A DNA stretch of 64,000 bases from Solirubrobacterales bacterium (GCA_038260305.1 JBBSNY010000010.1:582-64581); one strand, 5' to 3'; positions 5,660-29,455 are shown, counted from the stretch's first letter. A program made the numbers and translations. The notes: generated by a model not told the origin, from the sequence alone.

Positions 5660-5681
5660 GTCGCGTAGCGTTCGGCCCACG

Positions 5682-7178
5682 ATGGCCGACCGCTTCGACT
5701 CCTACCTGCGCCGCGCCGCCGAGCTCGTGCGCGACGGTGACGTGGCGCGCGCCGAGGGCTTCGAGCGACTTGCGCGCCAGACCCTCGAGCGGCTCGGCTC
5801 GCCGCCGCAGCTCGCGTCCCGGCTGCATGCGCTGCGCGGCGACCGCGCGCTGCGCCAGGCCGACTACCCGCTCTCCGAAGAGGCGTTCGGGGACGCGATC
5901 GCGTCGCTGCGCGAGTCCGGCGGCGGCGGGCGCGAGCTCTTCGAGCTGCTGCAGAAGCTTGGCCTGTCGCGCTCGCATCAGGGCGCCGACGAGCGCGCGC
6001 TGGAGGCGTTCGACGAGGCGATCGCCCTCGCGACCACGATCGGCCCGGCGTTCTATCCCGCCGCCTACGTCCAGATCGCGCGCGCTGAGTCGCTGCGGCG
6101 GCTGTCGCGCCGGGCGGATGCCGAGGAGAGCCTGCGCGCGGCGATCGCCGCCGCCGAGTTCGCGCCGCCCGAAGGCCGCGACAAGATCGCCCGCGCGGCG
6201 CGCGGCGCGCTCGATGCGCTGCGCGGGCGGGTGGGATCGGAATCGGGCTCGGCCGCGGGCTCGGCGGGGTCCCCCGCTGCTGTGGCCGCCGGCAGGCCCG
6301 CCCCGCCGGCGCCACCCGCTCCGCTCGATCCCTCGCGGCTGCGCGCCGACGAGGGCGACTACGACGCCGTCCTCGCCGAGCTCGACGAGCTGATCGGGCT
6401 CGCCGCCGTCAAGGCCGAGGTGCGCCGCCTCGCCGAGCTCCTGCGGATCGCGACGATGCGTCGCGCAGAGGGGCTGCGGACCGTGCAGGTCTCGCTGCAC
6501 CTCGTCTTCCAGGGCGGCGCGGGTACCGGCAAGACGACCGTCGCACGGCTCTTCGGACGCCTCTACAAGAGCCTCGGGCTGCTGGCGACCGACAACGTCG
6601 TCGAGGTCACGCGCGAGGACCTCGTCTCCGGCTACGTCGGGCAGACGGCGACGAAGACGAGCCAGGCGATCGACCGGGCGCTCGACGGCGTCCTGTTCCT
6701 CGACGAGGCGTACGGGCTCGTGCGGGCCGGCAGCGAGGGCGACTTCGGGCCCGAGGCCGTCGTCGAGCTGCTGAAACGCATGGAGGACGACCGCTCGCGG
6801 CTGGCCGTCATCGCCGCCGGCTACCCGCACGAGATGACGGAGTTCCTCGCCTCGAACTCGGGCTTTCGCAGCCGCTTCGGCGAGACGATCCACTTCGAGG
6901 ACTACGGCCCCGCCGAGCTCGTCGCGATCTTCGAGAAGTTCGCCGCCGACGCCGACTACGCGCTCGAACCGGAGGCGAAGCTCGAGCTGCAGCGCGTCAT
7001 GGAGCGCCTGCACGCGGCCCGCGACCGCTTCTTCGGCAACGCCCGCACCGCGCGCAACCTCTTCGACGACATCGTGTCGCACCAAGCCGAGCGGCTGCTG
7101 AAGAGCCCGGCCAAGCCCGACCGCGCGGCGCTGATGGCGCTGACGGTCGCCGACGTTCGGGCCGCGGCCCCGTCCTGA
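5682..7178 (+). CDS. AAA+ ATPase (CbxX/SpoVK/EccA-like) with N-terminal TPR-like helical region
   Basis: ORF 5682..7178(+). Walker A is FQGGAGTGKTTVA and Walker B is VLFLDEAYGL. IAAGYP is characteristic of the CbxX/SpoVK subfamily. Confidence 0.9.
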   Translation: MADRFDSYLRRAAELVRDGDVARAEGFERLARQTLERLGSPPQLASRLHALRGDRALRQADYPLSEEAFGDAIASLRESGGGGRELFELLQKLGLSRSHQGADERALEAFDEAIALATTIGPAFYPAAYVQIARAESLRRLSRRADAEESLRAAIAAAEFAPPEGRDKIARAARGALDALRGRVGSESGSAAGSAGSPAAVAAGRPAPPAPPAPLDPSRLRADEGDYDAVLAELDELIGLAAVKAEVRRLAELLRIATMRRAEGLRTVQVSLHLVFQGGAGTGKTTVARLFGRLYKSLGLLATDNVVEVTREDLVSGYVGQTATKTSQAIDRALDGVLFLDEAYGLVRAGSEGDFGPEAVVELLKRMEDDRSRLAVIAAGYPHEMTEFLASNSGFRSRFGETIHFEDYGPAELVAIFEKFAADADYALEPEAKLELQRVMERLHAARDRFFGNARTARNLFDDIVSHQAERLLKSPAKPDRAALMALTVADVRAAAPS

Positions 7179-11029: not shown

Positions 11030-12046
11030 TCAGGCGCCCTTGCGGGCGCGGCTGGGGGCGACCCGCGAGGGCTCGTCGGGCATCTTCGGATAGACGGGCG
11101 GCCACGGTGCGTCGTGCAGGCCGTTCGCGCGGTCGCGTTCGTGCATGTCCAGCAGCGGCTCGAGCGACTGGGGAGCGTCGTTGATCGCCTCCCACGGGTC
11201 GCTGTGGTCCGCGAGATGCTGTGGCACGGTGGCCATCGTGAGCTCGTCGGGATGCAGCTCGTCGACGTCCTCCCAGCGCAACGGCGTGGAGACCTGCGCC
11301 CCCTTTCGCGCGCGTACCGACCAGGCGCCGAAGACGGTCTTGTGCGGCGCGTTCTGGTTGAAGTCGACGAAGATCCGTCGACCGCGCTCCTCCTTCCACC
11401 AGGCGGCGGTCAGGATGTCGGGCCGGCGGCGCTCGAGCTCGCGCGCGATCGCGACGGCAGCCGAGCGCACCTCGTAGGAGTCCCACTTGGGCTGCAGCCG
11501 GACGTAGACGTGCAGGCCGCGGTTGCCGGTGGTCTTGGGGTAGCTGGTGATGCCCAGCTCCTCGAGCAGCTTGTGGACCTCGGTGGCGGCTTTGCGGACA
11601 TCGGTGAAGTCGGTGCCGGGCTGCGGGTCCAGGTCGAGCCTCAGCTCGTCGCAGTGGTCGGGATCGTCCGCGAGGTACGGCCAGACGTGAAAGCCGAGGC
11701 AGGCGAGGTTGACCGCCCACGCGACGTGCGCGCTGTCGGCCGCGACGAGCGCGCGCGACGGCGTGCCGTTGACGGTCTGCACCGTCGTCGTCTGCAGCCA
11801 GTCAGGCGCGCTGTCGGGCACGCGTTTCTGAAAGAACGACGGCCCGCCGGCGCCCTTGGGGAAGCGCTGCATGAGGACCGGCCGCCCGCCCATCGTCCGC
11901 AGCAGCGGCTCGGCGACGGCGACGTAGTAGTCGACGAGGTCGCGCTTGGTCTCGCCGCGCTCGGCGAACAGAACCTTGCCAGGGCTGGTGATGCGAACAT
12001 GTTGGCCGTCGAGCTCGAGAATCTGGGCGTCGTCTTTGGAGGCCAC
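11030..12046 (-). CDS. ligD: LigD polymerase (primase-polymerase) domain protein, NHEJ
   Basis: ORF 11030..12292(-), trimmed to GTG 12046 (VASKDDAQILELDGQHVRITSPGKVLF). Matching stretches: RDLVDYYVAVAEPLL, GRPVLMQRFPKG, DELRLDLDP, YPKTTGNRGLHVYV, IFVDFNQN. No ligase or nuclease domain. Confidence 0.9.
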   Translation of the reverse strand: MASKDDAQILELDGQHVRITSPGKVLFAERGETKRDLVDYYVAVAEPLLRTMGGRPVLMQRFPKGAGGPSFFQKRVPDSAPDWLQTTTVQTVNGTPSRALVAADSAHVAWAVNLACLGFHVWPYLADDPDHCDELRLDLDPQPGTDFTDVRKAATEVHKLLEELGITSYPKTTGNRGLHVYVRLQPKWDSYEVRSAAVAIARELERRRPDILTAAWWKEERGRRIFVDFNQNAPHKTVFGAWSVRARKGAQVSTPLRWEDVDELHPDELTMATVPQHLADHSDPWEAINDAPQSLEPLLDMHERDRANGLHDAPWPPVYPKMPDEPSRVAPSRARKGA

Positions 12047-12329
12047 TGGCCGCAACCGTACCGAGGGCTGGCAGCGGAGCAAACAGGAGACGATGAGGGG
12101 ACGGCCCGGCCCCTGCCGGCGGGACCGCCCATAGGGGTAACGAGACGACGGGCGGTAGGTATCGGTGTTGGCGGATGTAGCGCGGGTCTGCGGTGTAGGC
12201 ATACGCGCAACCTTGCCAACGAGGGCGAGCAACGGCTCGCGGGCCCGCTGCTCGTACCGGAGCATTCCTCCTGTGATGGCGATGTCGCGCATTGCGCAAG
12301 CACGTCAACACCATTGGGATGGTCCCCTC

Positions 12330-12375: not shown

Positions 12376-13659
12376 GTGCCTCGGAGCCACGGCTACCAGC
12401 GTCGGGTCCTCGATGACGAGCTCGACGCGCTCATGCTCGGCCTGCCCGCGATTGCCTTGGAGGGGCCGAAAGCCGTCGGCAAGACGGCTACCGCTTTGGA
12501 GCGGGCGGCAACTGTGCACGAGCTCGACGACCCCGACCAGCGCGCGGTCGCGGAGGCCGATCCGGACCGTCTGCTCGCCGCCACACCACCGGTGCTCATC
12601 GACGAGTGGCAATTCGTCCCAGCAGTGTGGGACCGGGTCCGTCGTGCGGTCGACGCTGATCGCACTCCTGGTCGGTTCCTCCTGACCGGCTCCTCCTCGC
12701 CAGTGGAGCGCGGGACGCACTCCGGTGCGGGGCGCGTCGTCGATCTACGGATGCGCCCGTTCGCGCTCGCCGAACGGCTGGCGCAGCCGCCGAGCGTCAG
12801 CCTTGAAGAGCTGCTCCGAGGCCGGCGCCCGGTCATCGCCGGACAGTGCAGCCTGACGCTGGAGGACTACACCGACGAGGTCCTCCGCTCGGGCTTCCCC
12901 GGACTGCGTGGGCTTCCAGAGCGTGCGTCGAGAGCGCAACTCGACGCCTACCTGCGGCGCGTCGTCGATCGCGATTTCCCTGAGCTCGGGCGTGCCGTTC
13001 GCAACCCGACCCTGTTGCGGCGGTGGATGGCGGCGTACGCGGCGGCCACGGCGACGTCGACGTCGTTCGAGAAGATTCGTGCGGCAGCGACGGGCGGCGA
13101 GGATGACAAGCCGGCAAAGACGACCGCTCGGGCCTACCGCGACATCCTCGAGCGCCTCTTCATCCTCGACGACCTGCCCGGATGGCAGCCCTCGCGTAAC
13201 CACATCGCGCAGTTCGCCCTGCCCCCAAAGCACCATCTCGCAGACCCAGCCTTAGCTGCCCGGCTACTGGGCGCGGACCGCGACACGCTCCTCAGAGGCT
13301 CGTCGTCCGGGCCGACCGTTCCACGCGACGGCACGCTGCTCGGCGCCCTCTTCGAGTCCCTCGTGACGCTGTCGGTACGGGTGTACGCCCAGGCGGCAGA
13401 GGCCTCCGTCGGACACCTGCGCACGAAGGGAGGCAGGCACGAGGTCGACCTCATCGTCGAGCGCCCCGACGGCAAGGTCATCGCCATCGAGGTCAAGCTG
13501 GGGGCAACCCCTCGCAGCGCCGATACCAAGCACCTGAGCTGGCTGACCGCGGAACTCGGCGACGACCTCCTCGACGCCGTCGTGATCACGACCGGCCGCG
13601 ACGCCTACCGGCGCGAGGACGGCATCGCCATCGTGCCCGCCGCCCTTCTCGGACCCTGA
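12376..13659 (+). CDS. AAA-domain ATPase with DUF4143 C-terminal domain
   Basis: ORF 12376..13659(+). Walker A-like LEGPKAVGKTATA and Walker B-like VLIDEWQ. FLLTGSS and HEVDLIVE..KVIAIEVK are typical of AAA_14+DUF4143 proteins (recognised from memory). Confidence 0.8.
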   Translation: MPRSHGYQRRVLDDELDALMLGLPAIALEGPKAVGKTATALERAATVHELDDPDQRAVAEADPDRLLAATPPVLIDEWQFVPAVWDRVRRAVDADRTPGRFLLTGSSSPVERGTHSGAGRVVDLRMRPFALAERLAQPPSVSLEELLRGRRPVIAGQCSLTLEDYTDEVLRSGFPGLRGLPERASRAQLDAYLRRVVDRDFPELGRAVRNPTLLRRWMAAYAAATATSTSFEKIRAAATGGEDDKPAKTTARAYRDILERLFILDDLPGWQPSRNHIAQFALPPKHHLADPALAARLLGADRDTLLRGSSSGPTVPRDGTLLGALFESLVTLSVRVYAQAAEASVGHLRTKGGRHEVDLIVERPDGKVIAIEVKLGATPRSADTKHLSWLTAELGDDLLDAVVITTGRDAYRREDGIAIVPAALLGP

Positions 13660-13821
13660 GGACCGCACGGCGGAACTCCAGGTCGTCGTGGATCAAGGCC
13701 TGCACGTTCTGCCGGACGAACGCCAACCTTCGCGGGCGTCGAGTTGGCAGCGCGCTTCGTGGGAGTCTCCCCCGGATCATCGCATCGCGGAGCGGAGGAC
13801 GGGACCGTACATCGACGGCGT

Positions 13822-15078
13822 CTACTCAGACGGTGTGCGGTCGCTCTGGCCGAAATGAGCCGAGGCAGCCCGCAGGTCGCCGATCAGCTCGACCACCGTC
13901 TGCTCCTCCTGCACGATGCGACCGACTGTGGCCATCGCGGTGGCGAGCTCCGCGAGCGACGCGTCATCGGGGGGCGCCAGCGGGCGCCGATCCGCCAAAA
14001 CGCTGCCGCCGCCGGCGTGCCGGTGGTACTCGTCGGGGTTCATCCGCCAGAGGCGCCCGTTCGTGATCGCGAGGAGACGGTCGAGGATGCGCAGGCCCTC
14101 GGGATCCATGTCGCCGTGGTGGCGGGGCGCAGCGCCGCCCTCGATCGTCGCCCGCAGCAGGCGCAAACAGGCCGTTGATGGCCATCCGCTCGTACACACG
14201 AGCGGTGGGCAGTTCTCGCCGAGGTCGTCGGCGGCCGCGGTCATGACGTCGGGGTTCTCGCAGGTGAAGACCGTTGGGCCGCATGCCAGGCACGAGATAC
14301 CGCGCAGTTCTCGCAGCGTCAGCACGCGTGGCTGCGGACATCCGGGCCACACGCCCAGGCACAACACGGTGCTCGACAGCTCGTCACAGCCGAGGCCCCA
14401 GCGGTCATAGCGTGCCCGTCGCGCCTCCGCGCCGCCGCCGCCGGAATCGGTCTCGCCGTCGAGTGCCGCCAGCGCTCGTCGTACCGCCCCGTCGAGCGAG
14501 CGGTCGCGATCGAGGGCATGCGGATCGCCGCCGCAGCACGACGCGGCGAAGCGCGCGAGTGTCTGCGGCGGATCGGCCGGGAGCGCCGCGACGACGGCGA
14601 GCGCGTGTTGCAGGAGCCCGAATGGGTCGCCGCCGCCGGTCCGGGCCGCGGCGCCGGTGGCGCGTTCGCGTTCGAGCCACGACTCGAGATCGGGGTGGCG
14701 GCGCAGCGCCGGGTGCGAGCGCAGCGCGCCCCAGCCGCCCTCGAGTGCCGCGGCCGCGGTGAGCCGGGCCGCACGGCGGTCGACGAGCGGGGCGCCGCCG
14801 AAGCCGGCGCACGACTCGACAAGCCCGCCGGCAAAGCGGGGGGACTCCCGCATCGCCGCGTCGAGCGCGGCGAGATCGACGCTCGCCGTCGCGCCGGGGA
14901 GCACCGCTCGCCAGCGCGGCCCGAGCAACCCCGACAACTCACGGATCTCATCCTCGCGAAGGTCCGCGAGGCGCAGGCGCCCGGCCGCGCGCAGGCCGTT
15001 GCGTTCAAGGCGCCGCGCGGCGTCGCGCAGAACGCGTGTGAGGCCGCCGGGGCCCGGCACCGGCTCTGCGGGGCTCAC
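13822..15078 (-). CDS. jetD: Wadjet type II JetD-like protein (TIGR02679/DUF2399, Toprim-like C-terminus)
   Basis: ORF 13822..15294(-), trimmed to GTG 15078 (VSPAEPVPGPGGLTRVL). C-terminal VFTCENPDV...PLVCTSGWPSTACLRLL...HHGDMDPEGLRILDRLL. Last gene of the four-gene operon. Confidence 0.8.
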   Translation of the reverse strand: MSPAEPVPGPGGLTRVLRDAARRLERNGLRAAGRLRLADLREDEIRELSGLLGPRWRAVLPGATASVDLAALDAAMRESPRFAGGLVESCAGFGGAPLVDRRAARLTAAAALEGGWGALRSHPALRRHPDLESWLERERATGAAARTGGGDPFGLLQHALAVVAALPADPPQTLARFAASCCGGDPHALDRDRSLDGAVRRALAALDGETDSGGGGAEARRARYDRWGLGCDELSSTVLCLGVWPGCPQPRVLTLRELRGISCLACGPTVFTCENPDVMTAAADDLGENCPPLVCTSGWPSTACLRLLRATIEGGAAPRHHGDMDPEGLRILDRLLAITNGRLWRMNPDEYHRHAGGGSVLADRRPLAPPDDASLAELATAMATVGRIVQEEQTVVELIGDLRAASAHFGQSDRTPSE

Positions 15079-15179
15079 CCGTTGACGACCTCCGTCTCGC
15101 AGCACCCACGCGCGGCGATCGGCTGCGGCTGCGGCTCCGGCTGCGGCTTGGAGCGGGTCACCCGTCGACGACCTCCGTC
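15075..15179. repeat. direct duplication of the jetC-stop/jetD-start junction (22-nt repeats, 83-bp period)
   Basis: tcacccgttgacgacctccgtc (15075-15096) against tcacccgtcgacgacctccgtc (15158-15179), 21/22 identical. The spacer contains ggctgc/ggctcc hexamer repeats. Confidence 0.8.
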
Positions 15180-18100
15180 GTCGTTTGCCCGTCCCACACG
15201 AAATGCTGGGCCCACACCCCCCACTCGGCGTTCTCGCGATGCAGCTCGTAGAAGCCGACGCGCGGGACGGTGGCGACGCACGGGTTGAGGTCATACGACG
15301 TCATCACCCAGTCCAGATCGAGCTCGACGAGCAGCGCGAAGACCTGCTCGCGGGTCTGTGGGTCGATGCCGTCCATCGCCTCGTCGAGCGCGACGATGCG
15401 CGGCGCACCGGGCGCGAGGTCATACAGCGCCGCGGCCGTCGCGAACAGCGGCAGGTGCATCAGCACCGACTGCTCGCCGCCGGAACCGAGGCCCTGCGTG
15501 CGCGGTGTGAGCTTGCGAACCGAGCCGTCGGGCTCGTGCAGGTGCAGCGTGAAGCGCCACCAACGCCGGTAGTCCAGTGCCACCGACAGGTGGTCGACGA
15601 TCGCCGTCTGCGACGCCTCGTCGGCGGCACCCGCCCGCGCGTCGGCGATCCGCTGCTCGAGGAAGGCAAACAGCGCGTCGCGCTGCGCCTTGGCGACGTG
15701 CTCGGTCGACCGGTCGCCCAGCAACGCGAGCACCGCCGCCGGCGCGCCCGCATCCTCGTCGACGTCCCACGACAGGCTGACGCTGCGCCCGGCGCCCGTC
15801 GGGCAGCGTCGGAGGATCTCGTTGCGGGCGCGCACGGTCGCCCGGACCGTCGTGATCCGCCCGCGCAGGTGCTCGGCGATCTCGGCGAGCAGCGCCTTGC
15901 CGAGCACCTCGCGGCGCCGCGCCGACAGCACCTGCTCGCGGTGCTCAAGGTCGCCGTCGAGGTCTGAGAGCATCGTCGACGGCGTACGGCGGTGGCCTGC
16001 CCGCGTGATCTCCACGAGGGTGAGGTCGTCGCTTGTGAACGACACCGCGTCCATGTCGAACGCCACCAGCTTCTGACCCAGCCGGCTGACAGCATCGCTG
16101 AGGCGCCGCGCGCGGGCGGACAGGTCGACGTTCGCATCGAGCACTGGGAGCGCCCGGACCCGGTCGAGCGCGGTCGTCAGCGGCCACGTCGCGGCCAGGC
16201 GCTCGTCCTCCGGTGACGCATGCGGACCGACCGCCGCCGTGAAGAGGTCATGCTCGCCGAGCCTCCGAACCCCGTCCAGCGCGGCGACGCGCTCCGTCTC
16301 CGCGATCGCAACCTGGGCGACCGCCTCGCCCGCGAGCCGCTCGGTGTCCTTCGCCGCGCCGATCGCGTCGCGATGTGCCTGCTCGGCGCCATCGCGCGCG
16401 CCATCGAGGCGATGGATGTCGGCGCGCAGGGCGGCCACGCGCGCACGCAGTTCGGACACGCTGGCACCGTCCGTCGTCTCGGCGGCCGCGAGTCGACCGG
16501 CCGCGGAGGCCTCGTCGTCCTGAGCCGCCCGCAGATCGTCGGCCGCCTCGCGGTGAGCGGTCTCGGCGTCGCCCAACGCGCGCCGCGCCGCGTCGACGCG
16601 GCACCGTGCACCGGCGGCATCGAGCAGCGCCTGCTGGGTGCGTTCGCATTCGAAGCCGGCGCGATCGATCGCCTCGGCCGCGGCGCGCAGCGCCGCCGCG
16701 TCCGTCGGCAGTCGCGTGGAGCCCGCGTGGGCGTGAAGCGCGTCGCGCGCGCCGGATACGTCGCGCTCGTATCGCTCGCGCTGCACGACGAGCTCGCTCA
16801 GCTGCTCCTCCCGCGCGGCGAGGCGATCCGCCGTCCGGCGCTCCGCGCGCAGCGCGCTGCGCAGCTCGGCGACATCGGGCAGCGACCGCCGCTCGCGGGC
16901 GAGCTGTTCGCGCGCCGCGGCGACCTGTTCGAGCTCCGCGTCGACGCGCTGCAGCTCCTCCTCGAGGCCGCCGACAACGGCCCGCGCCTGCGACAGCAGG
17001 CGCTCGCGGAGCGCGGCGCGGGCGGCGGCGCCGATGTACTCGGCGACCGGCTTGGCGGCGCGTCCGCGCAGGGGGCCGAAGCGAAAGCGCCCGGGCGCGA
17101 CGCTGACCGGGCCGTCGAGCGCAATCGACCGCAGGACACGCGTCACGACCGCAGCGTCGATCGAGCGCGCGCCCGGGGCCGCCACGAGCATGTCCGCGAG
17201 CGTCGCGCGTGTGCCCGCCCCCGCGCCACCGGTGTCAAGATCCCCGTCGGCTATCAGAGTCAGATCGGCGTCGTGCACGCTGCCGTCCGGCGCGATCCAG
17301 GCATCGAGGATTCCGGCATCCTCGAGCGCGGCTTCGAGCAGCGGTCGCTGCTCGTCCGGCAGGTCCGCTGCGAAGTCGCAGACCGCCCACAGCGGCGCGC
17401 CGGGCCGGCCGTCGCGCGAAGCGCGGCGCGGATGCAGCACCGGAGGCTCCGGATCCTGGCGCTCCTCGATCTCCCCCACGCGGGCGACGGCGCTGGCCAG
17501 CTCGGCGCTCAGGGTGGAGCGCCGGCTCGTGACCCGCGCCTGCTCCCCGGCGAGCTCGTCGACCCGTCCGGCCGCGAGCTCGGTCAGCAGCGCGCCGGGA
17601 TCGCCGTCCTGCGCGGCGAGCGCGGCGAGCCGCTCGAGCTGCTCGTCGCCGATCGACAGCTCGCGCAATGACAGCCGCCACGCCTGCAGCCCGTCATCGA
17701 AGCACTCCAACGCGTCCTCCAACAGCGAGTGGCACGTCGCGGCAGCCACCGCAGCCTCGTCGCGCCTCGTCGCCGCGAGCGCGAGCGGGTCGGCGATCGC
17801 GCGCATCACCTCGAGCGCGGACGCGAGCGTGGCGGCGAGCATGCTCGCGCGCTGCACGTCCTGGGCACGAACCGCCATCCGACCAGGGAGCGCGTCGAGC
17901 GCGGCTCGCTCCGCGACCGGGCAGTCGAGGCCGACCTGCGACAGGAGCGCGGCGAGCCGCGCGAGCACCGCCGTGACCGCTTCCTCCGCGGCAAGCGCGG
18001 CCGCCTGCTCCTCGGCGAGCAGCGTGCCGGCCACGTCGAGCTGGTCGTGCAACCGGGTCGCACTTGCACCCGCCCGCGCCGCCCGCCGCTGCGCCTGCTC

Positions 18101-19177
18101 GTGCTCGCGCGCCCGCGCCTCGAGCAGGCCGACGGCCTTGTAGGCCTCCGAACCGACGAGCTCGAGGTGCTCCTCGGTGACTCTCCGGTGATCGGTCTGG
18201 ACGCGCCCGACCGTCGCCGCCGCCCCGGCGAGCGCCTCCTTGGCAGCGGCATGACCGTCCTCGCACGCACGAGCGCTCGCGCGCGATCTGTCGTACACGC
18301 CGACCGCCGCCTTCAGCCGCTCGCCGCGAACCGCCAGCACGCCGCGCGCATAGCTGCGGCTCTCGCCACTGACGAGCGAGGCAACCTCGCCGCGCGCGTC
18401 ACGCAGCTCGTCGTGCTGACGTTGCAGTTCGTGCAGCTGTTCGAGCGCGTCGCCCAGCTTGCGCACGAGCGCCTCGTCGACCGCCGGCAGCGCGCCCGAC
18501 AGCATCGTCGACAGTCCCTTGACGTTCAGGCTGTCCGACAGCTTCGGCTTGCGCAGCTGGCGGATGATCTCGAGCATCTGCTCGTACAGCTCCGGGGTCG
18601 CGAACGGCATGAGCTGCGCGCGCAGCGCCTCCTTGTAGGCCGTCGGCCCGTCGTGCAGCGCGCCGCCCGCGCGCAGCTGATCGACGAGGTCGCTGCGGAC
18701 GACGGGCTGCATCCCGCCGTCTCCGACGAGGCGGGTCAGCTCGAGGTCGGCTCCGACACGCAACGGCGTCGTGAAGTACCAGCGGTCCTTGACCCCGTCG
18801 GCGCTGCGCGTCGCCTCGAGCCCGATCCCACAGGTGAGAAACCGCTCCGATCCGTCGTCGTCGACGACGCGGAACTCGGCCCACACGTAGCCGACGCGCT
18901 TCGTGGCGCGCCGCTCTGGATACGGATCGGTGCACTCGATGAGGTTCCAGCGCATCGTCTTCGCCGACGAGGCGAACGGGTCGAGCTTGCGCGGCGTGAT
19001 GTCGCCGTCGAGCACGAACGGGATCAACAGCTCGAGCGCCTTGCTCTTGCCCGAGGTGTTGCGCCCACGCAGGGCGAGGCGGCCGTCCTCGACCGCGAAC
19101 TCCTGGTCGGCGTACTCGTAGAGCCCGACGATGCCGAGCCGGTGCGGGCGGAAGCGGGCGACGGGCGGGGCGGTCAT
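15158..19177 (-). CDS. jetC: Wadjet type II JetC-like SMC/Rad50-family ATPase (TIGR02680-like), 1339 aa
   Basis: ORF 15158..19456(-), trimmed to ATG 19177, which overlaps the jetB stop (ATGA). Walker A LRGRNTSGKSKALELLIPFVLDG. Long Ala/Glu/Arg/Leu-rich coiled-coil-like middle. Signature and Walker B GLGSGGEQSVLMHLPLF...PRIVALDEAMDGID. Confidence 0.9.
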   Translation of the reverse strand: MTAPPVARFRPHRLGIVGLYEYADQEFAVEDGRLALRGRNTSGKSKALELLIPFVLDGDITPRKLDPFASSAKTMRWNLIECTDPYPERRATKRVGYVWAEFRVVDDDGSERFLTCGIGLEATRSADGVKDRWYFTTPLRVGADLELTRLVGDGGMQPVVRSDLVDQLRAGGALHDGPTAYKEALRAQLMPFATPELYEQMLEIIRQLRKPKLSDSLNVKGLSTMLSGALPAVDEALVRKLGDALEQLHELQRQHDELRDARGEVASLVSGESRSYARGVLAVRGERLKAAVGVYDRSRASARACEDGHAAAKEALAGAAATVGRVQTDHRRVTEEHLELVGSEAYKAVGLLEARAREHEQAQRRAARAGASATRLHDQLDVAGTLLAEEQAAALAAEEAVTAVLARLAALLSQVGLDCPVAERAALDALPGRMAVRAQDVQRASMLAATLASALEVMRAIADPLALAATRRDEAAVAAATCHSLLEDALECFDDGLQAWRLSLRELSIGDEQLERLAALAAQDGDPGALLTELAAGRVDELAGEQARVTSRRSTLSAELASAVARVGEIEERQDPEPPVLHPRRASRDGRPGAPLWAVCDFAADLPDEQRPLLEAALEDAGILDAWIAPDGSVHDADLTLIADGDLDTGGAGAGTRATLADMLVAAPGARSIDAAVVTRVLRSIALDGPVSVAPGRFRFGPLRGRAAKPVAEYIGAAARAALRERLLSQARAVVGGLEEELQRVDAELEQVAAAREQLARERRSLPDVAELRSALRAERRTADRLAAREEQLSELVVQRERYERDVSGARDALHAHAGSTRLPTDAAALRAAAEAIDRAGFECERTQQALLDAAGARCRVDAARRALGDAETAHREAADDLRAAQDDEASAAGRLAAAETTDGASVSELRARVAALRADIHRLDGARDGAEQAHRDAIGAAKDTERLAGEAVAQVAIAETERVAALDGVRRLGEHDLFTAAVGPHASPEDERLAATWPLTTALDRVRALPVLDANVDLSARARRLSDAVSRLGQKLVAFDMDAVSFTSDDLTLVEITRAGHRRTPSTMLSDLDGDLEHREQVLSARRREVLGKALLAEIAEHLRGRITTVRATVRARNEILRRCPTGAGRSVSLSWDVDEDAGAPAAVLALLGDRSTEHVAKAQRDALFAFLEQRIADARAGAADEASQTAIVDHLSVALDYRRWWRFTLHLHEPDGSVRKLTPRTQGLGSGGEQSVLMHLPLFATAAALYDLAPGAPRIVALDEAMDGIDPQTREQVFALLVELDLDWVMTSYDLNPCVATVPRVGFYELHRENAEWGVWAQHFVWDGQTTTEVVDG

Positions 19178-20376
19178 GCGAGCTCCATCTGGGTCTGGGC
19201 GGCGCGGCGGCCGACGGCCGCGCGGTAGCGGTGGGCAACCGGCAGCGTCTGGATCGCGCCGGTGACCAGGTCGCGCCGGACGAGACGGAGGTCCGTGAGC
19301 ACCTCGAGCGCAGTGCGACAGGCGCGATCGACGGCGTCCGGATCGCGTGGGTCCCACGTCGACCAGTGCTCGGCGTGTCGGCGCAGCAGCGTGCGGGCGA
19401 TCGCGTGCAGCTCCTCCGCGGAGATCGACGAGCCACGGCCCGCGTCGCGCGCACACAGCTCTGGGATCAGCAGCAGCGCGAGCTGCTTGACATGACCGCG
19501 CGCGGGAAACGGCCGGTCGCTGAGCTCGCGGCCGGTCGCGACGAGCGCCGTGCCCTCGCGACGACGCTCGACCGCCAGCCCGGTGATCCGCTGCGCGATC
19601 GCCTCGAGGCGTCCGCGCTGCGCGACGAAGTACATCCGGTCCTCCTCGTCGAGGTCGTCGAGGTACAGGACCGGGTCCTCGACGAGCGCGCGTAGGAGGC
19701 GGCGCGAGCGCGCACGACCGGCGAGCTCGCCACCGCTCTCCTCGGGCGCCTGCAGGTCGCGCGGCTCGACGGCCTCTGCCGTGCGCACGGCGTCGATCAG
19801 CAGCAGTGCCAGCCGGCGGCGGTGGACGTCATAGAACGCCTCGTCGTCGCTCGCCAGCTCCCCGGCCGCGCCGGCGCGCAGCTCCAGGACGCCGGCCGCG
19901 ACGAGGAAGGCCATGGCGTCGTTGAGCGCGAGCCGGTCGGCCCGCGAGCGCCAGTCGAGCGTCACGTCGAGCGAGCGGGCGTGGGCCAGCACCTCCTCGG
20001 CGAGCGCGCCGAGCGGCACCTGCGTCCACGACTTGCGCTCGAGCACCCCCGCGACGACGCAGGCGAGCACGCAGCCGCGTTGCTGCAGCGTGCGGCGCTC
20101 GTCGACGGGCTTGGAGCGCTCGTTGGCGCTGCGCGGCGCGAGCCGCAGCGGCCGCGCGCCGGCGAGGGTGACGCGCTTGGCGAGGTGCGCGGTGTCGGCG
20201 GTGACGGTGAGCGTGGCACCGAGGTGGTCGCGCAACGTCGCGGCGAGCTCCTCGCGATGGCGACGGGCGAGCGCGAACTCCGGGTCGCGGGGCGTCAGCA
20301 GCTGGCGTTCGAGCAGCGCGCGGACGGCACGCAGGCGCTCCTCGGCGGCAGCCTGGGCGACGGCGTCGGGGTTCAC
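19174..20376 (-). CDS. jetB: Wadjet type II JetB-like protein (TIGR02678/DUF2398-like)
   Basis: ORF 19174..20376(-), 400 aa. Its GTG start overlaps the jetA stop (GTGA). Position and size fit. Helical, with the pattern ...LLERQLLTPRDPEFALARRHREEL...DEAFYDVHRRRLALLL recalled for DUF2398. Confidence 0.75.
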   Translation of the reverse strand: MNPDAVAQAAAEERLRAVRALLERQLLTPRDPEFALARRHREELAATLRDHLGATLTVTADTAHLAKRVTLAGARPLRLAPRSANERSKPVDERRTLQQRGCVLACVVAGVLERKSWTQVPLGALAEEVLAHARSLDVTLDWRSRADRLALNDAMAFLVAAGVLELRAGAAGELASDDEAFYDVHRRRLALLLIDAVRTAEAVEPRDLQAPEESGGELAGRARSRRLLRALVEDPVLYLDDLDEEDRMYFVAQRGRLEAIAQRITGLAVERRREGTALVATGRELSDRPFPARGHVKQLALLLIPELCARDAGRGSSISAEELHAIARTLLRRHAEHWSTWDPRDPDAVDRACRTALEVLTDLRLVRRDLVTGAIQTLPVAHRYRAAVGRRAAQTQMELA

Positions 20377-21923
20377 CGCTGGACCTCGATCGCGTAGTCG
20401 GGGCAGTCGAGCTGCCCGTGCTCGGCGGCAACCGTCGTTCGCTCGCCGTCAGGCGGAGGCACGAGCCGCAGGCGCATGCCGCCGTCGGCGGTCGTGGCAC
20501 GACGCGTGCCGTCGCGCTCGCGGGGCTGGGCGAACGCCCGCGAGAGCAGGCCGAGCAGGTGCTCGAGCTCGACCGGGTGCAGGCGGTGCAGCTCGCTCAT
20601 CCGCAGCGTGGCCCCCGTGCCGAGCCGCGCGAGCAGCCGTCCGAGGTGCTCCTGCTCGGCGGACTGCGCGGCACGCACGCGGTCGGCGAGACGATCGTTG
20701 AGCGCCAGCCGCGCCGGCGTGCCGGAGCCGGGGATCCGCGTGCCCGGGGTGCGCAGGTGGGCGGCGACCCTGATCGGCGGAGCGTCGCGCCAGGGCGTGG
20801 ACCCGGGGCTCGAAAGCTGGTCGGCTTCGGGATCGGGCCCGGCGAGGTGGCGCGGCGCGCGGATGCCGGTCGCGACGGCCATGCAGGCCGGCGCCGTCAG
20901 CGCGTCCGCGTCGGCCACGATCCGCGCGAGGCGATCCCACGCAGCGGCACGATCCCGGTGCCCGGCGGCACGGTCGATGAGGCGCTCGGCGATGTCGATG
21001 ATCGCGCGGATCGCGTCGAGCAGCTTGTCGGTCAGCAGCGCCCACGGCGCCTCCGCCTCGCCGGGCCGGCCGAACCACGCGCGGACGCCGTCCCAGCGGG
21101 CGCGCAGCGTGCGGAGGGCCTGCGCGGCGAGCTGCTCGGGCGTCAGGTCGCCGATCGCCGGCGGCAGCGGGCGTCCGGAGAGCACGAGCTCGACGAGGCG
21201 CCCGGTCCCGAGCCGCTCGATCTCTGCGATCGCCGCGAAGATCGGCTCGGCGTGGCGGCGCAGATCACGATGAAAGCCCTGCAGGTAGCCGACGATCACG
21301 TCCTGCTGGACGACGAACTCCTCGCTCGTGATGCGATCGGACGCCGTGAACGCCTGGAGCTGCGTCATGAAGTCGGTCGCGCCCTGGCGCAGGGCGGCGA
21401 CGGCGTCGGCCACGGTCTCGAGGTCCTCGCCGAGGCGCTGGACGTCAGGCTCGGCGGCGGCGAGCTCGTTCGCGATGCGCGCAAGCGTGTCGCGGATCGT
21501 GAGCAGGCGGCCGGACTCGAGGGCGCCGATCTCCTCGCCGAGGGTGTCCAGCTCGGCGAGCAGCCGCTCCACGCGCTCGCCGGACGGCGTGATGTCGTAG
21601 ACCGAGCGCTTGCGACGCCACTCCTCGGCCGAGGTAACGGCGCGCGTGTCCGCGCGGGCGGCGAGCACCCGTTCGCCGACGAGGCGTTCGAGCGTCCGGT
21701 CGAGCACGTCGTCGTCGAGCGTCGCTCCGAACTCGGTCGCCAGCCGCTCGCGCACGTCGCCGGGCGCCAGCTGCCATCCGATGTCGCGCGTCTTGTTGAG
21801 AAAGAAGACGCGCATCACGCGCCGGTAGCGCTCGGCGTGCTCGCCGATCGCGTAGCTGACCTCGCGGCGCTCTGGCAGCCCGGTCGACATCACGAAGAGG
21901 GCCGGGCTCGAGGAAGAATCCAT
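20373..21923 (-). CDS. jetA: Wadjet type II JetA-like protein (TIGR02677/DUF2397-like)
   Basis: ORF 20373..22055(-), trimmed to ATG 21923 (ATG 21890 also possible). N-terminal YAIGEHAERYRRVMRVFF resembles the TIGR02677 N-terminus. First gene of the operon. Confidence 0.75.
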   Translation of the reverse strand: MDSSSSPALFVMSTGLPERREVSYAIGEHAERYRRVMRVFFLNKTRDIGWQLAPGDVRERLATEFGATLDDDVLDRTLERLVGERVLAARADTRAVTSAEEWRRKRSVYDITPSGERVERLLAELDTLGEEIGALESGRLLTIRDTLARIANELAAAEPDVQRLGEDLETVADAVAALRQGATDFMTQLQAFTASDRITSEEFVVQQDVIVGYLQGFHRDLRRHAEPIFAAIAEIERLGTGRLVELVLSGRPLPPAIGDLTPEQLAAQALRTLRARWDGVRAWFGRPGEAEAPWALLTDKLLDAIRAIIDIAERLIDRAAGHRDRAAAWDRLARIVADADALTAPACMAVATGIRAPRHLAGPDPEADQLSSPGSTPWRDAPPIRVAAHLRTPGTRIPGSGTPARLALNDRLADRVRAAQSAEQEHLGRLLARLGTGATLRMSELHRLHPVELEHLLGLLSRAFAQPRERDGTRRATTADGGMRLRLVPPPDGERTTVAAEHGQLDCPDYAIEVQR

Positions 21924-22220
21924 GCCGCGAACGGGTCGTCCCCGGCGTCGGACATGATCTGACAGAAAGGCATCGACATCGGATCGTGGAGCGTAGGCGC
22001 GAGTCCGGTCAGAACTGCGGGATCGAGCGGTCCGCGCCGCGCGCTGGCCACACAAGGTCGAGCCTCAGCCGCGGCAGCGTTTGTCCCTGGGCGTCGGGGC
22101 GCATCGGAAGCAAACGCGATCGGGCGCTGTGCTGCTGCCCCGGCCGCGATCCATCCGCCTGGCTGCGGATACGGGCGCGGTGACTTCCTCCTACGCGGGA
22201 ACTAAAGGTTGCCGCAGCAC

Positions 22221-22240
22221 TGACGCGTCAAACTATAGTT
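22221..22240. promoter_or_regulatory. two adjacent perfect 10-bp palindromes at the abiEi start
   Basis: TGACGCGTCA (22221-22230) followed directly by AACTATAGTT (22231-22240). The second overlaps the TTG start at 22239 and contains a TATAGT -10-like hexamer. Confidence 0.35.
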
Positions 22241-22847
22241 GAGGCAACGCACGCCTACTGACCGCCGAGATCTGCGTCGCCGGCTGTTCGCACTGTCCGC
22301 GGACCAGGCCGGCTATTTCACGGCCGCCCAGGCGAAGGCGGTCGGATACTCGTACCCCGCCCAGGCGCATCATGTGGGCGCAGAGAACTGGATCCGCGTC
22401 GACCGCGGCATCTTCCGCCTTGCCGATTGGGTGCCCGGCATCCACGACGAGCTCGCACGCTGGTATTTGTGGTCGAAGGAGCGTGCGGTCGTGTCGCACG
22501 ACACTGCGCTTGGTGTGTACGAGGTCGGCGAGTTCGAGTCGAGGCGCATCCATCTGACCGTCCGTCCCGGGTTCCGGATGAGGGACGACGCGCTGATTCT
22601 GCACACGGCTGATCTGCCCGCGGAGGATGTCGAGATCCGCCCGGGCTATCGCGTGACGAAGCTCGCGCGGTCACTGATCGATGTCGCCGCCGAGCACCCC
22701 GACGAGGACCAGCTCGCACGCGCGATCGGGGAGGCGCTCGCCCGCGGCACGGTTACGCGCCGTCAACTTCGGACCCGCGCCGAGGCAGTTGATCCACTGG
22801 CCGCCCTTCGCGTCGAGCGGGCGCTCGGCGTGCTGGGGCTGATGTGA
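22239..22847 (+). CDS. abiEi: AbiEi-family antitoxin / transcriptional regulator
   Basis: ORF 22239..22847(+), TTG start. N-terminal ADQAGYFTAAQAKAVGYSYPAQAHHVGAENWIRVDRGIFRL is the AbiEi winged-helix pattern. It overlaps the next ORF by GTGA. Confidence 0.8.
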   Translation: MRQRTPTDRRDLRRRLFALSADQAGYFTAAQAKAVGYSYPAQAHHVGAENWIRVDRGIFRLADWVPGIHDELARWYLWSKERAVVSHDTALGVYEVGEFESRRIHLTVRPGFRMRDDALILHTADLPAEDVEIRPGYRVTKLARSLIDVAAEHPDEDQLARAIGEALARGTVTRRQLRTRAEAVDPLAALRVERALGVLGLM

Positions 22848-23471
22848 CCTATGGCACGCCGCAGGCCCTGCGAACCGCGCTAGAGGCACGCATCCGCATC
22901 GAGTCCGCGACAACTGGGCTTCCTCCGGATCGGCTACGCCGCCGCGTCGTCTTTCAACGGATCGCGATGCGGCTTCAGCGTGCAGAGCCGCGGTCGACGT
23001 CGACCTGGCTGGGCGCCGGTTCGGAGCGATCAAGCTCGACATCTCACCCCGCTCTCACGAGCTCGACGCGACGGACACGATCGGGCTGCCGAACGCGCTC
23101 GAGTTTGCGGGATTCGGCTCGGTCGCTGTCGAGGTCGTCGACATCCACCGCCATGCCGCCGAGAAGCTCCACGGCATGCTCAAGGACTTCGGGGAGCGCG
23201 AGAACTCGCGTGTGCGCGACCTCGCAGACCTGATGCTGATGCTCGATGCCGACCTCGTGTCCGCTGACCAGCTCGCCGATGTCGTGACCGACGTGTGGGC
23301 GGAACGCGACGCAACCAACCCACCCACCGTGCTCCCGGACCTGCCGACGGGCTGGCCAGCGCGATATGAGCGCCTCGCGACCGAGAACCGGATCAAGCCG
23401 ACGTCTTTGCCACCGCCGCCGATGTCGCAGCGGCGCTGTGGCGCTCGATGTTCCCGCCCGACTCCAGGTGA
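22844..23471 (+). pseudogene. abiEii: decayed AbiEii (DUF1814 nucleotidyltransferase) toxin gene
   Basis: The N-terminus MTYGTPQALRTALEARIRIESATTGLPPDRLRRRVVFQRIAMRLQRAEP is in frame 2. The continuation ..LAGRRFGAIKLDIS...HRHAAEKLHGMLKDFGERENSRVRDLADLMLML...WPARYERLA is in frame 1. The tail VFATAADVAAALWRSMFPPDSR* is in frame 0. The W.LKGG / DxD catalytic core expected between the first two pieces is missing. Confidence 0.7.
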
Positions 23472-23601
23472 TCGCATGCGCAACAGGTCGCTCGGAAGTT
23501 CGAAGAACTCGACCGTCGCGGCGACCGACAGGGGATCGCCATTCGGCTCCAGATCGGCAATCTCCGCCTCGTCGGCGCCTTTCTCGCGGCTCCGAGGGTG
23601 A

Positions 23602-23675
23602 TCGGGGAGACAGGATTTGAACCTGCGACCGCCCGGCCCCCAGCCGGGTGCGCTACCAGACTGCGCCACTCCCCG
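23602..23675 (-). tRNA. tRNA-Pro (anticodon GGG)
   Basis: Hand-folded: CGGGGAG-TG-GCGC-AGTCTGGTA-GCGC-A-CCCGG-CTGGGGG-CCGGG-CGGTC-GCAGG-TTCAAAT-CCTGT-CTCCCCG-A, 74 nt. Confidence 0.9.
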
Positions 23676-23856: not shown

Positions 23857-24842
23857 TCAGCCGCGCAGCTTCGCGAGCTGGCGCTTGAGCTCGGCGAACG
23901 CCGGCCGCGGCTTGCCGTCCGAGCCGATGAAGGCCGAGTCCCAGCTGTCGCGCGGCGTCGACGAGTCCCAGTGGTAGAAGTAGATGCGCGTGATCCGCTT
24001 GCTCACGCGCGCGAGCTTGCGGAAGATGAACTTTGTCGCGTGGGCGGCGTGGACCTTGCCCTGCGCGAGCTTGATCTTCGAGCCGTTTCGCCGCGCGACG
24101 AGGCCGCCGATCTCCGTCAACCAGACCTCCCCGGGGACGGCCCGAAGCAGCGCCTTCGTGCGCGTCGTGTGCGCGCGGTTCGCGTCGATGTAGTCGTGCA
24201 GGCCCCAGTACTTCGGCTCGACCTTCGCCGCGCGCCGGAACGCGCGCGCCCACGAAACCGCGTTGTTCTGGTCGAGCAGGTCGGCCGCCAGCACCTCGCA
24301 GCCCGGGCAGTTCTTGCGAATCGCGTCGAAGTACGCGACCACGAGCTTGGGCTTGCGGCACGTCCCGGTCCCGCACTGGTTGGCTTCGTTCCAGGCCGAG
24401 TACGTCTTGATGTCCGGATAGCGCGCTCGGAACGTGAGGAACTGAGCCTTGAGGCGGCGGCCGTCGGCGGCTTGCGGCCGCTCGGCCCCGTCGGGCGGGC
24501 GAACGTCAGCAGCGGCTGTGCGTCCATCGAACGCGCCCCCGCCACCCACTCGTCCAGCCGAGCGGTCTCGTCCGGCGACTTCAACGCATCCCAGGCGACC
24601 GAGCGGCGGGCGTAGCCCAGACCGAGGCCGCGCAGCCGCGCGTCCGCGAACCCCGAAGCCTTCTGGTCGGCGATCCCGACCTTCACGTGGAGCCTGCCAG
24701 TCACCGGACTCAGGCGAGCGGCGTCCGCGACGGAGGCCGACAGCACGAAGAACGCCCCGACGACGGCGAACACGCAACGAGCACTCCGGTGCGGCGAGGC
24801 GACCATCGCGCCGCAGACTAGCCCCGCCATCCTCTGCCGCAC
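23857..24842 (-). pseudogene. secreted glycoside-hydrolase-like protein (TIM-barrel GH-A type) with an internal frameshift
   Basis: The N-terminal half is in the frame of ORF 24117..24842 (signal peptide MVASPHRSARCVFAVVGAFFVLSASVADA, VGIADQKASGFADARL...DAQPLLTF). The C-terminal half is in the frame of ORF 23857..25230 (LKAQFLTFRARYPDIKTYSAWNEANQ...YWGLHDYID...VWLTEIGG). The frames switch near 24455-24500. This could also be a sequencing error. Confidence 0.6.
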
Positions 24843-24885
24843 CCCACCTGGCGCGCAAACCCAGCATCTCCGGGGCTTCCGACAG

Positions 24886-24956
24886 CGGGGGACCCAGGAA
24901 TCGAACCTGGCGTTGCGGTTTTGGAGACCGCCGTGTTACCGATACACTAGTCCCCC
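24886..24956 (-). tRNA. tRNA-Trp (anticodon CCA)
   Basis: Hand-folded: GGGGGAC-TA-GTGT-ATCGGTA-ACAC-G-GCGGT-CTCCAAA-ACCGC-AACG-CCAGG-TTCGATT-CCTGG-GTCCCCC-G. Confidence 0.9.
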
Positions 24957-25205
24957 TCGCGGGCCGCGCATTGTAGATGGCGCCCCGACGGCGAGCATCG
25001 ACCCGATGCCTCTGGAGCCTGACCCGCAGGGACTTCGTCGGTGTTCTCCTCCCGACCTGTCGGCGCGTGCGCAGCGTACCCGACGACCCCGCCGCGAGAA
25101 GTCCATGCATCGGGTAGCTCCTGCCATGGCGCCCGCTACCCTCCAGGTAGATCATTGCGCATGCAACCACTTTGACCCGACGACCACCGACCCAAGGGGA
25201 ACCCC

Positions 25206-25757
25206 ATGAGCGCCACCACCACCACCGCACTGCCGACTGGCACCTGGAACGTCGACCTCGCCCACTCCCACGTCACGTTCAGCGTCCGCCACATCGGCAT
25301 CTCGAAGGTGCGCGGCGAGTTCGCCGCCTACGAGGGCCAACTCGTCATCGCCGAGGACGGCACCGTCACGGCCTCGGGCTCGGTTGATGTCGGCTCGATC
25401 GACACCCGCGATGCCAATCGCGACGGGCACCTTCAGTCGGCGGACTTCTTCGACGTCGAAAACAACCCGAAGATCACGTTCCAGTCGACCTCGATCAGCG
25501 CGATCGACGACGAGACCTACGAGATCACCGGCGACCTGACGATGCACGGCGAGACGAAGCCGATCACGCTCAAGGCCGAGCTCGGCGGCACCGAGACCGA
25601 CGCCTTCGGCGCGGAGCGCGTCGGTCTCGACATCACCGGCGAGATCAGCCGCGGCGACTTCGGCATGAAGTTCAACATGGCGCTTGGCAGCGGCAACGTC
25701 GTCGTCAGCGACAAGGTCAAGGTCGAGCTCGACATCTCGGCGATCAAGGCCTCCTAG
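25206..25757 (+). CDS. YceI-family polyisoprenoid-binding protein
   Basis: ORF 25206..25757(+). Matching stretches: HSHVTFSVRHIGISKVRGEF, DTRDANRDGHLQSADFFDVENNPKITF, GDLTMHGETKPI. Confidence 0.9.
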   Translation: MSATTTTALPTGTWNVDLAHSHVTFSVRHIGISKVRGEFAAYEGQLVIAEDGTVTASGSVDVGSIDTRDANRDGHLQSADFFDVENNPKITFQSTSISAIDDETYEITGDLTMHGETKPITLKAELGGTETDAFGAERVGLDITGEISRGDFGMKFNMALGSGNVVVSDKVKVELDISAIKAS

Positions 25758-28714: not shown

Positions 28715-28727
28715 AATCAGCACCAAA

Positions 28728-28809
28728 TGCGGGCGGAGGGACTCGAACCCCCATAGCTTTCGCCACCGGCACCTAAAGCCGGCGTGTCTACCAATTCCAC
28801 CACGCCCGC
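28728..28809 (-). tRNA. tRNA-Leu (anticodon TAG)
   Basis: Reverse strand: GCGGGCGTGGTGGAATTGGTAGACACGCCGGCTTTAGGTGCCGGTGGCGAAAGCTATGGGGGTTCGAGTCCCTCCGCCCGCA. Anticodon arm CCGGC-TTTAGGT-GCCGG. Long variable arm. Confidence 0.9.
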
Positions 28810-28852
28810 AAGGTCGCCTGCCGGGGCCGCTCCCCCTCGGTCACGGGATTGT

Positions 28853-29332
28853 ATGTTGGCTGACGGCATGGCCCATCGAGCGACGGTCATCGAGCATCCC
28901 AACCGCGACGCGCCGGCGTCGCGCGCCACGCAGGCGGCGGTCGTCGCGCTCCTGCTCGCGAGCGCGGCCGTGCTCGTGATCGTCACGGTCGGCGGCTGGT
29001 CGCGCATCCAGGGCGCGAAGTCGGTGCAGATCGCGTTCATCCTCGTGTATGTCGCGATGGCGTTCTACGTCGGACGCTGGCGCAGCGGCGTGCTGCCGGT
29101 CGCCGCGGCGTTCGCGATCGTGCTCGCGATGTTCGCCGCGATCAGCGCGCCCGGCTGGTTCGCACGCAACGGGACGGGCTTCGATGACCCGCTGCTCGAC
29201 GCGGGCCTCGTCGGCGTCCTGACCGTGCTGCTCGTGCCGCTGCAGATCGCGCTGATCCTGTTCGCGGCGCGCGGCTTCTCGCAGCGCTGGAGCGTCGAGG
29301 TCGAGCGCCCCGCGGGTGCCGCGCTCGCGTAA
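28853..29332 (+). CDS. integral membrane protein, unknown function
   Basis: ORF 28784..29332(+), trimmed past the tRNA overlap to ATG 28853 (ATG 28868 also possible). About 4 predicted TM helices (AAVVALLLASAAVLVIVTV, IAFILVYVAMAFYV, VAAAFAIVLAMFAAI, LVGVLTVLLVPLQIALILFA). Confidence 0.6.
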   Translation: MLADGMAHRATVIEHPNRDAPASRATQAAVVALLLASAAVLVIVTVGGWSRIQGAKSVQIAFILVYVAMAFYVGRWRSGVLPVAAAFAIVLAMFAAISAPGWFARNGTGFDDPLLDAGLVGVLTVLLVPLQIALILFAARGFSQRWSVEVERPAGAALA

Positions 29333-29366: not shown

Positions 29367-29450
29367 GCCCGGGTGCTGGAATTGGAATACAGGATCGGCT
29401 CAAAACCGATTGCCCGTGAGGGATTGTGGGTTCGAGTCCCACCCCGGGTA
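29367..29450 (+). tRNA. tRNA-Leu (anticodon CAA)
   Basis: GCCCGGGTGCTGGAATTGGAATACAGGATCGGCTCAAAACCGATTGCCCGTGAGGGATTGTGGGTTCGAGTCCCACCCCGGGTA. Anticodon arm ATCGG-CTCAAAA-CCGAT. Long variable arm. G1-U72 wobble in the acceptor stem. Confidence 0.85.
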
Positions 29451-29455
29451 CTGCA

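Follow-up and report, generated by a model that had tools for sequence, protein, structure and literature searches.

A probable chromosomal type II Wadjet operon with a duplicated jetC/jetD junction in a GC-rich Solirubrobacteraceae-like actinobacterium

The 64,000-nucleotide stretch of Solirubrobacterales bacterium DNA analysed here (GCA_038260305.1, JBBSNY010000010.1:582-64581; the whole of it is referred to as the window) very probably carries an intact chromosomal type II Wadjet (JetABCD) operon. On the minus strand, positions 13822-22055 hold four consecutive long open reading frames (ORFs) in a mechanical ORF list, and the four genes within them code for a kleisin, a tandem-KITE (kleisin-interacting tandem winged-helix element) protein, an SMC (structural maintenance of chromosomes) type ATPase and a putative nuclease subunit. 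The G+C content of the window is 68-76% throughout, and the host is a Solirubrobacteraceae-like, Thermoleophilia-type actinobacterium of 72% GC. The family, the type II subclass, its structure and its mechanism are all published, so that the operon is a routine further member; its sole slightly unusual feature is a duplication at the junction of jetC and jetD. The genes are as follows, with lengths in amino acids (aa).

20373-21923, minus strand: jetA, 516 aa, kleisin subunit (DUF2397 / TIGR02677 / JetA2)
19174-20376, minus strand: jetB, 400 aa, tandem-KITE subunit (DUF2398 / TIGR02678 / JetB2)
15158-19177, minus strand: jetC, 1339 aa, SMC-type ATPase (TIGR02680 / JetC2)
13822-15078, minus strand: jetD, 418 aa, CAP-like and Toprim nuclease subunit (DUF3323 and DUF2399 / TIGR02679 / JetD2)
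20373-22055, 19174-20376, 15158-19456 and 13822-15294, minus strand: the mechanical ORFs that contain these genes

An earlier, sequence-only reading of this DNA had described four minus-strand genes that run in one direction and code for 516, 400, 1339 and 418 aa. The ORF reading and public gene calls both bear this out, as these very protein sequences, with identical lengths, already appear among the called genes of a 134,753-bp NCBI contig and also in a Logan assembly. The longest mechanical ORFs would give a jetD of 490 aa (ATG at 15294), a jetC of 1432 aa and a jetA of 560 aa, and were rejected as genes. The upstream extensions show no coding signal in the G+C content of third codon positions (GC3), the profile matches begin past the shorter starts, and the public calls are the shorter forms. 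In the 72-codon extension ahead of the 418-aa jetD, GC3 is 0.65 and the second-position G+C content (GC2) is 0.83, compared with a GC3 of 0.86 in the body of jetD. Across the four jet genes GC3 is 0.86-0.93 (0.925 in jetA), as is usual for genuine genes of this genome.

The co-directional genes follow the type II Wadjet order jetA-jetB-jetC-jetD, with two overlaps and one gap. At the first junction jetA and jetB share the 4 nucleotides (nt) GTGA (20376-20373, read in cagcGGTGAacc, GGTGA), the GTG start of jetB lying on the jetA stop. Similarly, jetB and jetC share ATGA (19177-19174, read in cgcATGAccg), with the ATG start of jetC on the jetB stop. Both overlaps had been correctly recognized beforehand, as part of a statement that the first three junctions are 4-nt overlaps; the operon has only three junctions, and the third, between jetC and jetD, is a 79-nt gap (15079-15157).

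All four proteins match the families expected of a type II system. JetA matches PF09660 (DUF2397) with an expectation value (E) of 9.2e-101 over profile positions 2-482 of 483, and JetB matches PF09661 (DUF2398) over its full length (E 1.8e-62). JetD contains both PF11796 (DUF3323; E 5.7e-41) and PF09664 (DUF2399; E 4.2e-34). Judged against the curated NCBIfam cut-offs, JetA scores 258 bits with TIGR02677 (cut-off 165.85), JetB 156 bits with TIGR02678 (cut-off 124.65) and JetC 750.4 bits with TIGR02680 (cut-off 462.85), the last aligning residues 8-1332 to positions 1-1354 of 1356. The best PADLOC models are likewise those of type II, namely JetA2 (1e-86), JetB2 (4e-67), JetC2 (9e-282) and JetD2 (1.1e-90). 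Of the type I PADLOC models, JetC1 (4e-9) and JetD1 (~1e-4) are matched weakly and JetA1 and JetB1 gave no match, so that type I is not the best match. The Wadjet type II assignment made from the sequence alone thus agrees with the Pfam, TIGR02677/02678/02680/02679 and PADLOC type II models. That the family is described rather than novel also holds, a type II system having since been reconstituted and solved (bioRxiv 10.1101/2025.03.10.642339; PDB 9QE0/9QE1).

The large ATPase could in principle belong instead to an SbcCD/Rad50-, RecN- or RecF-type repair system with unrelated partner genes. A domain of that kind is in fact the sole Pfam domain above cut-off in JetC, PF13558 (SbcC_Walker_B; E 7e-20), which falls in the C-terminal head. 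Against this, JetC matches TIGR02680 along its whole length (750 bits) and also JetC2 (E 9e-282), and the three partner proteins match Wadjet-II families. No SbcC, RecN or RecF match was obtained for JetC with NCBIfam, and the operon contains no Mre11/SbcD-type nuclease. By these sequence comparisons a repair ATPase is refuted already, and its probability is negligible.

JetC contains the motifs of an ABC-type (ATP-binding cassette) ATPase that had been pointed out earlier, with a Walker A motif (G38RNTSGKS), an ABC signature (S1232GGE) and a Walker B motif (I1261VALDE) beginning at residues 38, 1232 and 1261. The protein aligns with the JetC chain of the solved Wadjet-II complex of Neobacillus vireti (9qe0_A; phmmer E 2.4e-67) in three blocks, which correspond to the N-terminal head, the hinge region and the C-terminal head. 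Within these blocks the motifs are paired as GRNTSGKS/GTNGSGKS, SGGEQ/SGGEK and IVALDEA/IISLDEA. Residues ~201-550 and ~701-1200 are rich in A, E, R, L, Q, K, D and M and mostly poor in Pro and Gly, and they lie around a Pro/Gly-rich centre that aligns with the hinge region of the N. vireti protein, the aligned block there comprising residues 587-821. This composition and alignment give indirect support to the coiled coil that had been suggested for the long middle region, and JetC may have the type II architecture of long coiled-coil arms with an elbow and a compact hinge lacking a channel. JetA is also related by direct sequence search to its N. vireti counterpart (9qe0_E; phmmer E 1.8e-21), residues 16-510 aligning to 9-491 of 500.

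As JetB and JetD have no relatives in the PDB by plain sequence search, both were modelled with AlphaFold 2 (AF2) from alignments of database homologues and compared by fold using Foldseek. The JetB model has a mean predicted local distance difference test score (pLDDT) of 80.9. Its best match is N. vireti JetB (9qe0_D), with 391 aligned columns, template modelling (TM) scores of 0.59/0.61, E 1.7e-11 and 17% identity. Type I JetB and MukE align with the same model over ~170-240 columns only, roughly one lobe. On the basis of the model, JetB is predicted to be a tandem KITE, a single chain with four winged-helix domains, as in the N. vireti type II system, an arrangement that has been suggested for most or all type II systems (bioRxiv 10.1101/2025.03.10.642339). 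The JetD model is of higher confidence (mean pLDDT 93.8, predicted TM score 0.82), and its top matches are Corynebacterium glutamicum MksG (8b7f), Pseudomonas aeruginosa JetD (7til) and topoisomerase VI-A (1d3y). The Toprim-like motifs previously noted in JetD, CENPDV, CTSGW and HHGDMDPEG, are all present. Among 47 homologues the Toprim residues E274 (of CENP), N275 and D323 (of GDMD, the first Asp of the DxD) show no variation, and conservation of D325 is at least 90%.

The SMC, kleisin and KITE subunits are common to Wadjet and to MksBEF/MukBEF, and the resting state of the N. vireti type II complex resembles MukBEF (bioRxiv 10.1101/2025.03.10.642339). The locus might therefore be taken for a chromosome-organizing condensin of the MksBEF/MukBEF kind, with no role in defence. 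Those condensins have no nuclease, whereas this operon has a jetD gene with conserved Toprim acidic residues. The best models are all of the Jet type II series, and Pfam and NCBIfam scans of the four proteins recovered no Muk or Mks family model. In addition, the genes around the operon vary among relatives and are of defence type here, which fits a mobile defence module and not a core housekeeping locus. A housekeeping condensin is accordingly considered very improbable.

Since all components and all checked motif residues of a type II Wadjet are present, the same mechanism as in the characterized systems is assigned to the operon by analogy, with high confidence as to its identity and moderate confidence as to its current activity. 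Under this mechanism JetC would dimerize as an SMC protein. The kleisin JetA would close the JetC dimer and connect two motor units, giving a dimer of motors, with a single tandem-KITE JetB bound to JetA. The complex would then load onto DNA and extrude loops, driven by ATP. On a small circle the motors would traverse the whole molecule and stall, and the stalled complex would activate the CAP/Toprim nuclease dimer of JetD. JetD would cut the DNA without sequence specificity, and linear DNA and the large chromosome would escape. The predicted outcome is the restriction of incoming plasmids.

This scheme follows what is known of the N. vireti Wadjet-II system, which restricts plasmids when moved into Bacillus subtilis (bioRxiv 10.1101/2025.03.10.642339). 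In vitro its cleavage requires JetABC, JetD and ATP, and there was minimal cleavage before the addition of Mn2+. Circular and artificially circularized DNA is cut at random positions and linear DNA is spared, a cleavage pattern consistent with the extrusion-then-cleavage mechanism common to type I (bioRxiv 10.1101/2025.03.10.642339). By comparison with these results, expression of the operon, assembly of the complex, loop extrusion and plasmid cleavage may be expected to take place in the present host, and JetABCD would act there in plasmid restriction.

The junction between jetC and jetD departs from the arrangement seen at the other two. Two features lie here.

15054-15179, minus strand: junction duplication, with 43-nt copies at 15137-15179 and 15054-15096, 83 nt apart
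15075-15161, minus strand: a short relay ORF of 28 codons, VTRSKPQPEPQPQPIAARGCCETEVVNG*

The two 43-nt copies were found as a repeat family (D13) and are 81% identical; a local alignment of their core scores 40, compared with a maximum of 25 in 300 shuffles. Each copy contains GGAGG followed by GGGTGA. The reading frame of jetC stops in the first copy and that of jetD begins in the second, both frames being intact, and it is because of this 83-nt duplication that the two genes are separated by 79 nt. The jetD codons that follow the second copy (VSPAE…LTRVLRDA) match the N-termini of JetD from relatives. In five of five relatives (L001, L002, L006, L007 and L008) the two genes meet in a plain GTGA overlap without the insert, …GTCGACGGGTGAG…. 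The insert also appears in the same sequence as assembled independently in Logan. Its inner 53 nt occur once only in the window, so it is not a copy of a dispersed repeat there.

The jetC/jetD junction is duplicated, not destroyed. It had been called disrupted, which is right in that the overlap is lost and too strong in that both frames are intact. Within the second copy GGAGG lies 10 nt upstream of the jetD GTG, and jetD probably remains translated by means of this copy of its own. The space between the genes is bridged by the relay ORF, which begins with a GTG on the jetC stop and ends with a TGA on the jetD GTG, so that one GTGA overlap has become two. If the relay ORF is itself translated, coupling may survive through its terminal overlap with jetD, and stop/start coupling from its 28 codons possibly assists jetD translation.

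It is conceivable that the insertion marks a Wadjet operon in the course of becoming inactive or re-tuned. The insertion would uncouple jetD from jetC, the nuclease would be too low or deliberately lowered, and JetABC would remain as a loop extruder poor in nuclease. Only this sequence has the insertion, five relatives keeping the GTGA overlap, and a second assembly reproduces it. Moreover, the adjoining AbiEii gene is fragmented (two frames, with the middle missing), and a gene between nearby tRNAs also looks frameshifted. Conversely, all four jet ORFs are full-length against their profiles and keep the checked motif residues, GGAGG has been copied before the true jetD start, and a GTGA overlap joins the end of the relay ORF to jetD. 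Inactivation or re-tuning is on balance unlikely. A narrower proposal, that the duplication is a working relay arrangement that re-tunes the amount of JetD nuclease per JetC motor and is not neutral damage, is distinctly doubtful; if true, an SMC defence system would here provide a naturally occurring case in which the dosage of its toxic nuclease arm is controlled. The duplication constitutes a small natural experiment on jetC/jetD coupling.

The intact type II Wadjet operon remains the preferred interpretation, and several observations count against it. The jetC/jetD overlap of the five relatives is lost here, and JetD dosage could therefore be altered. The match of JetD to TIGR02679 is borderline (196.1 bits with a cut-off of 196). 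JetB gave no match to N. vireti JetB by plain sequence search with phmmer, its assignment coming from profile and fold matches only. A sigma-70 consensus scan of 13400-22400 found no promoter, a scan that is uninformative for an actinobacterium of 72% GC. Finally, the sequence of the neighbouring AbiEii indicates a pseudogene, which means that defence-gene decay occurs at this locus. The operon promoter is presumably held by the gap between jetA and the divergent abiEi gene.

21924-22238: jetA-abiEi intergenic region, 315 nt, presumed site of the operon promoter from its position only

The terminator-like sites at the locus all fall within coding sequence, in a scan equally uninformative at this G+C content, and Rfam found no structured RNA in or beside the operon, the four tRNAs being its only hits in the window.

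The closest characterized system is the type II Wadjet of N. vireti LMG 21834 (nvJET-II, PDB 9QE0/9QE1; Roisné-Hamelin, Liu & Gruber), which has the same gene order. The subunits are of similar size: JetA has 516 residues here and 500 in the N. vireti chain, JetB 400 and 388 aa, and JetC 1339 and 1371 in the chain. JetC and JetA are homologous to their counterparts by direct search, and the JetB model superposes over its whole length on the tandem-KITE chain. The sequences are strongly diverged, the N. vireti host belonging to the Bacillota and the present one being an actinobacterium of 72% GC, and the 83-nt jetC/jetD duplication is a further difference. The type I Wadjet and MksBEFG systems (JetABCD of Escherichia coli GF4-3 and P. 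aeruginosa PA14; MksBEFG of C. glutamicum), compared through PDB 8B7F, 7TIL, 8AS8 and 8DK1, share the same logic of SMC, kleisin, KITE and CAP-Toprim nuclease. JetB is a single KITE-bearing protein of 242 aa in E. coli type I (bioRxiv 10.1101/2025.03.10.642339), whereas the predicted tandem KITE of 400 aa described here is twice that length. In type I systems JetB, at about 240 aa, functions as a homodimer. Similarly, the 1339 aa of JetC exceed the type I JetC models, whose profiles have lengths of ~1100-1150 positions. MukBEF and MksBEF share the SMC-kleisin-KITE architecture, and MukE matches one lobe of JetB.

The loci most similar to this one belong to Solirubrobacteraceae metagenome-assembled genomes (MAGs), four of them from a contig scan with single-protein patterns. 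Operons such as those on JBBJOJ010000032.1, DATAZX010000016.1 and JAUXSD010000042.1 have the same four genes, with JetD 65-79% and JetB up to 88% identical; the closest relative is L006, in which JetD is 79% identical. Protein searches returned dozens of Solirubrobacteraceae homologues that are 55-88% identical, with less similar sequences coming from Patulibacter, Pseudonocardiaceae, Streptomyces, Kitasatospora, Nonomuraea and Microbacterium. TIGR02678 or TIGR02679 family labels are already attached to many of these proteins. A literature search on TIGR02680 returned nothing relevant.

The value of the operon lies mainly in annotation, where it adds another intact Wadjet-II operon, this one from a little-studied and very GC-rich actinobacterial lineage. 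When circular plasmids are introduced into this host or its relatives, restriction is to be expected. The standard laboratory strain of Mycobacterium smegmatis owes its efficient plasmid uptake to a Wadjet null mutation (PMC10586767). The diverged JetB tandem KITE and JetD could also serve SMC research as comparison sequences.

The operon lies within a small defence cluster, made up of a PDC-S01 candidate, AbiEi and the degraded AbiEii, beside tRNA-Pro and tRNA-Gly. The neighbouring features are as follows.

12376-13659, plus strand: AAA_14 and DUF4143 ATPase gene, convergent with jetD, PADLOC candidate PDC-S01 (E 1.4e-80)
11030-12292, minus strand: stand-alone LigD primase-polymerase domain gene (PF21686, E 5e-92), beyond the PDC-S01 candidate
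22239-23601, plus strand: AbiE toxin-antitoxin remnant, divergent from jetA, in which abiEi looks intact (PADLOC E 5e-62)

The adjacency of the PDC-S01 candidate and jetD is not kept in the Wadjet loci of relatives. No Ku or ligase domain was found in the scanned ORFs adjoining the LigD primase-polymerase gene. AbiEii is represented by two fragments in different frames, covering profile positions 7-53 and 182-251 with the middle missing. These fragments abut tRNA-Pro (23602-23675), which is followed by tRNA-Gly and, 1.1 kb further, by tRNA-Trp. The gene between tRNA-Gly and tRNA-Trp (23857-24842, minus strand) is apparently split over two frames and has no Pfam match. Its N-terminal part, with a hydrophobic signal-peptide-like start, lies in an ORF at 24117-24842 and its well-formed C-terminal part in an ORF at 23857-25230; the split reflects either a frameshift in a pseudogene or an error of assembly.

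A tRNA-targeted integrative island is not indicated, as the 3' end of tRNA-Pro is not repeated in the window and no integrase was found among the ORFs scanned near the operon. The flanking genes of the five Solirubrobacteraceae relatives with the 4-nt jetC/jetD overlap are unlike those in the window, as expected for a mobile defence module. At L006 (1-446 and 11726-12565) a Polbeta/NTP_transf_2 nucleotidyltransferase gene stands before the Wadjet operon and an N6_N4 DNA methyltransferase gene lies ~3 kb downstream. This differing context suggests that the operon moves among defence-type neighbourhoods. The remaining scanned ORFs of the window match housekeeping-type families, so the wider context is taken to be chromosomal. 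They include an aminotransferase, an amidase, a molybdopterin dehydrogenase and a radical-SAM (S-adenosylmethionine) protein with a CofH C-terminal domain, together with a histidine kinase, PPK2, an RNase T-type exonuclease, a major facilitator superfamily (MFS) transporter and a DEAD-box helicase.

Elsewhere in the window, two divergent tRNA-Leu genes at 28727-28810 (minus strand) and 29367-29451 (plus strand), with anticodons TAG and CAA, bracket an open frame of 192 aa (28757-29332, plus strand) that has no Pfam match. The tRNA-Leu(CAA) gene was called by ARAGORN and was not reported by Rfam at the gathering threshold. A 25-nt tandem unit, GAGGATCAGGCCCGGCGCGTCGCCT, is present in ~6-8 copies at 5483-5682. 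This array lies just upstream of a TPR, AAA and AAA_lid_6 ATPase gene (5610-7178, plus strand) and overlaps the start of its open frame.

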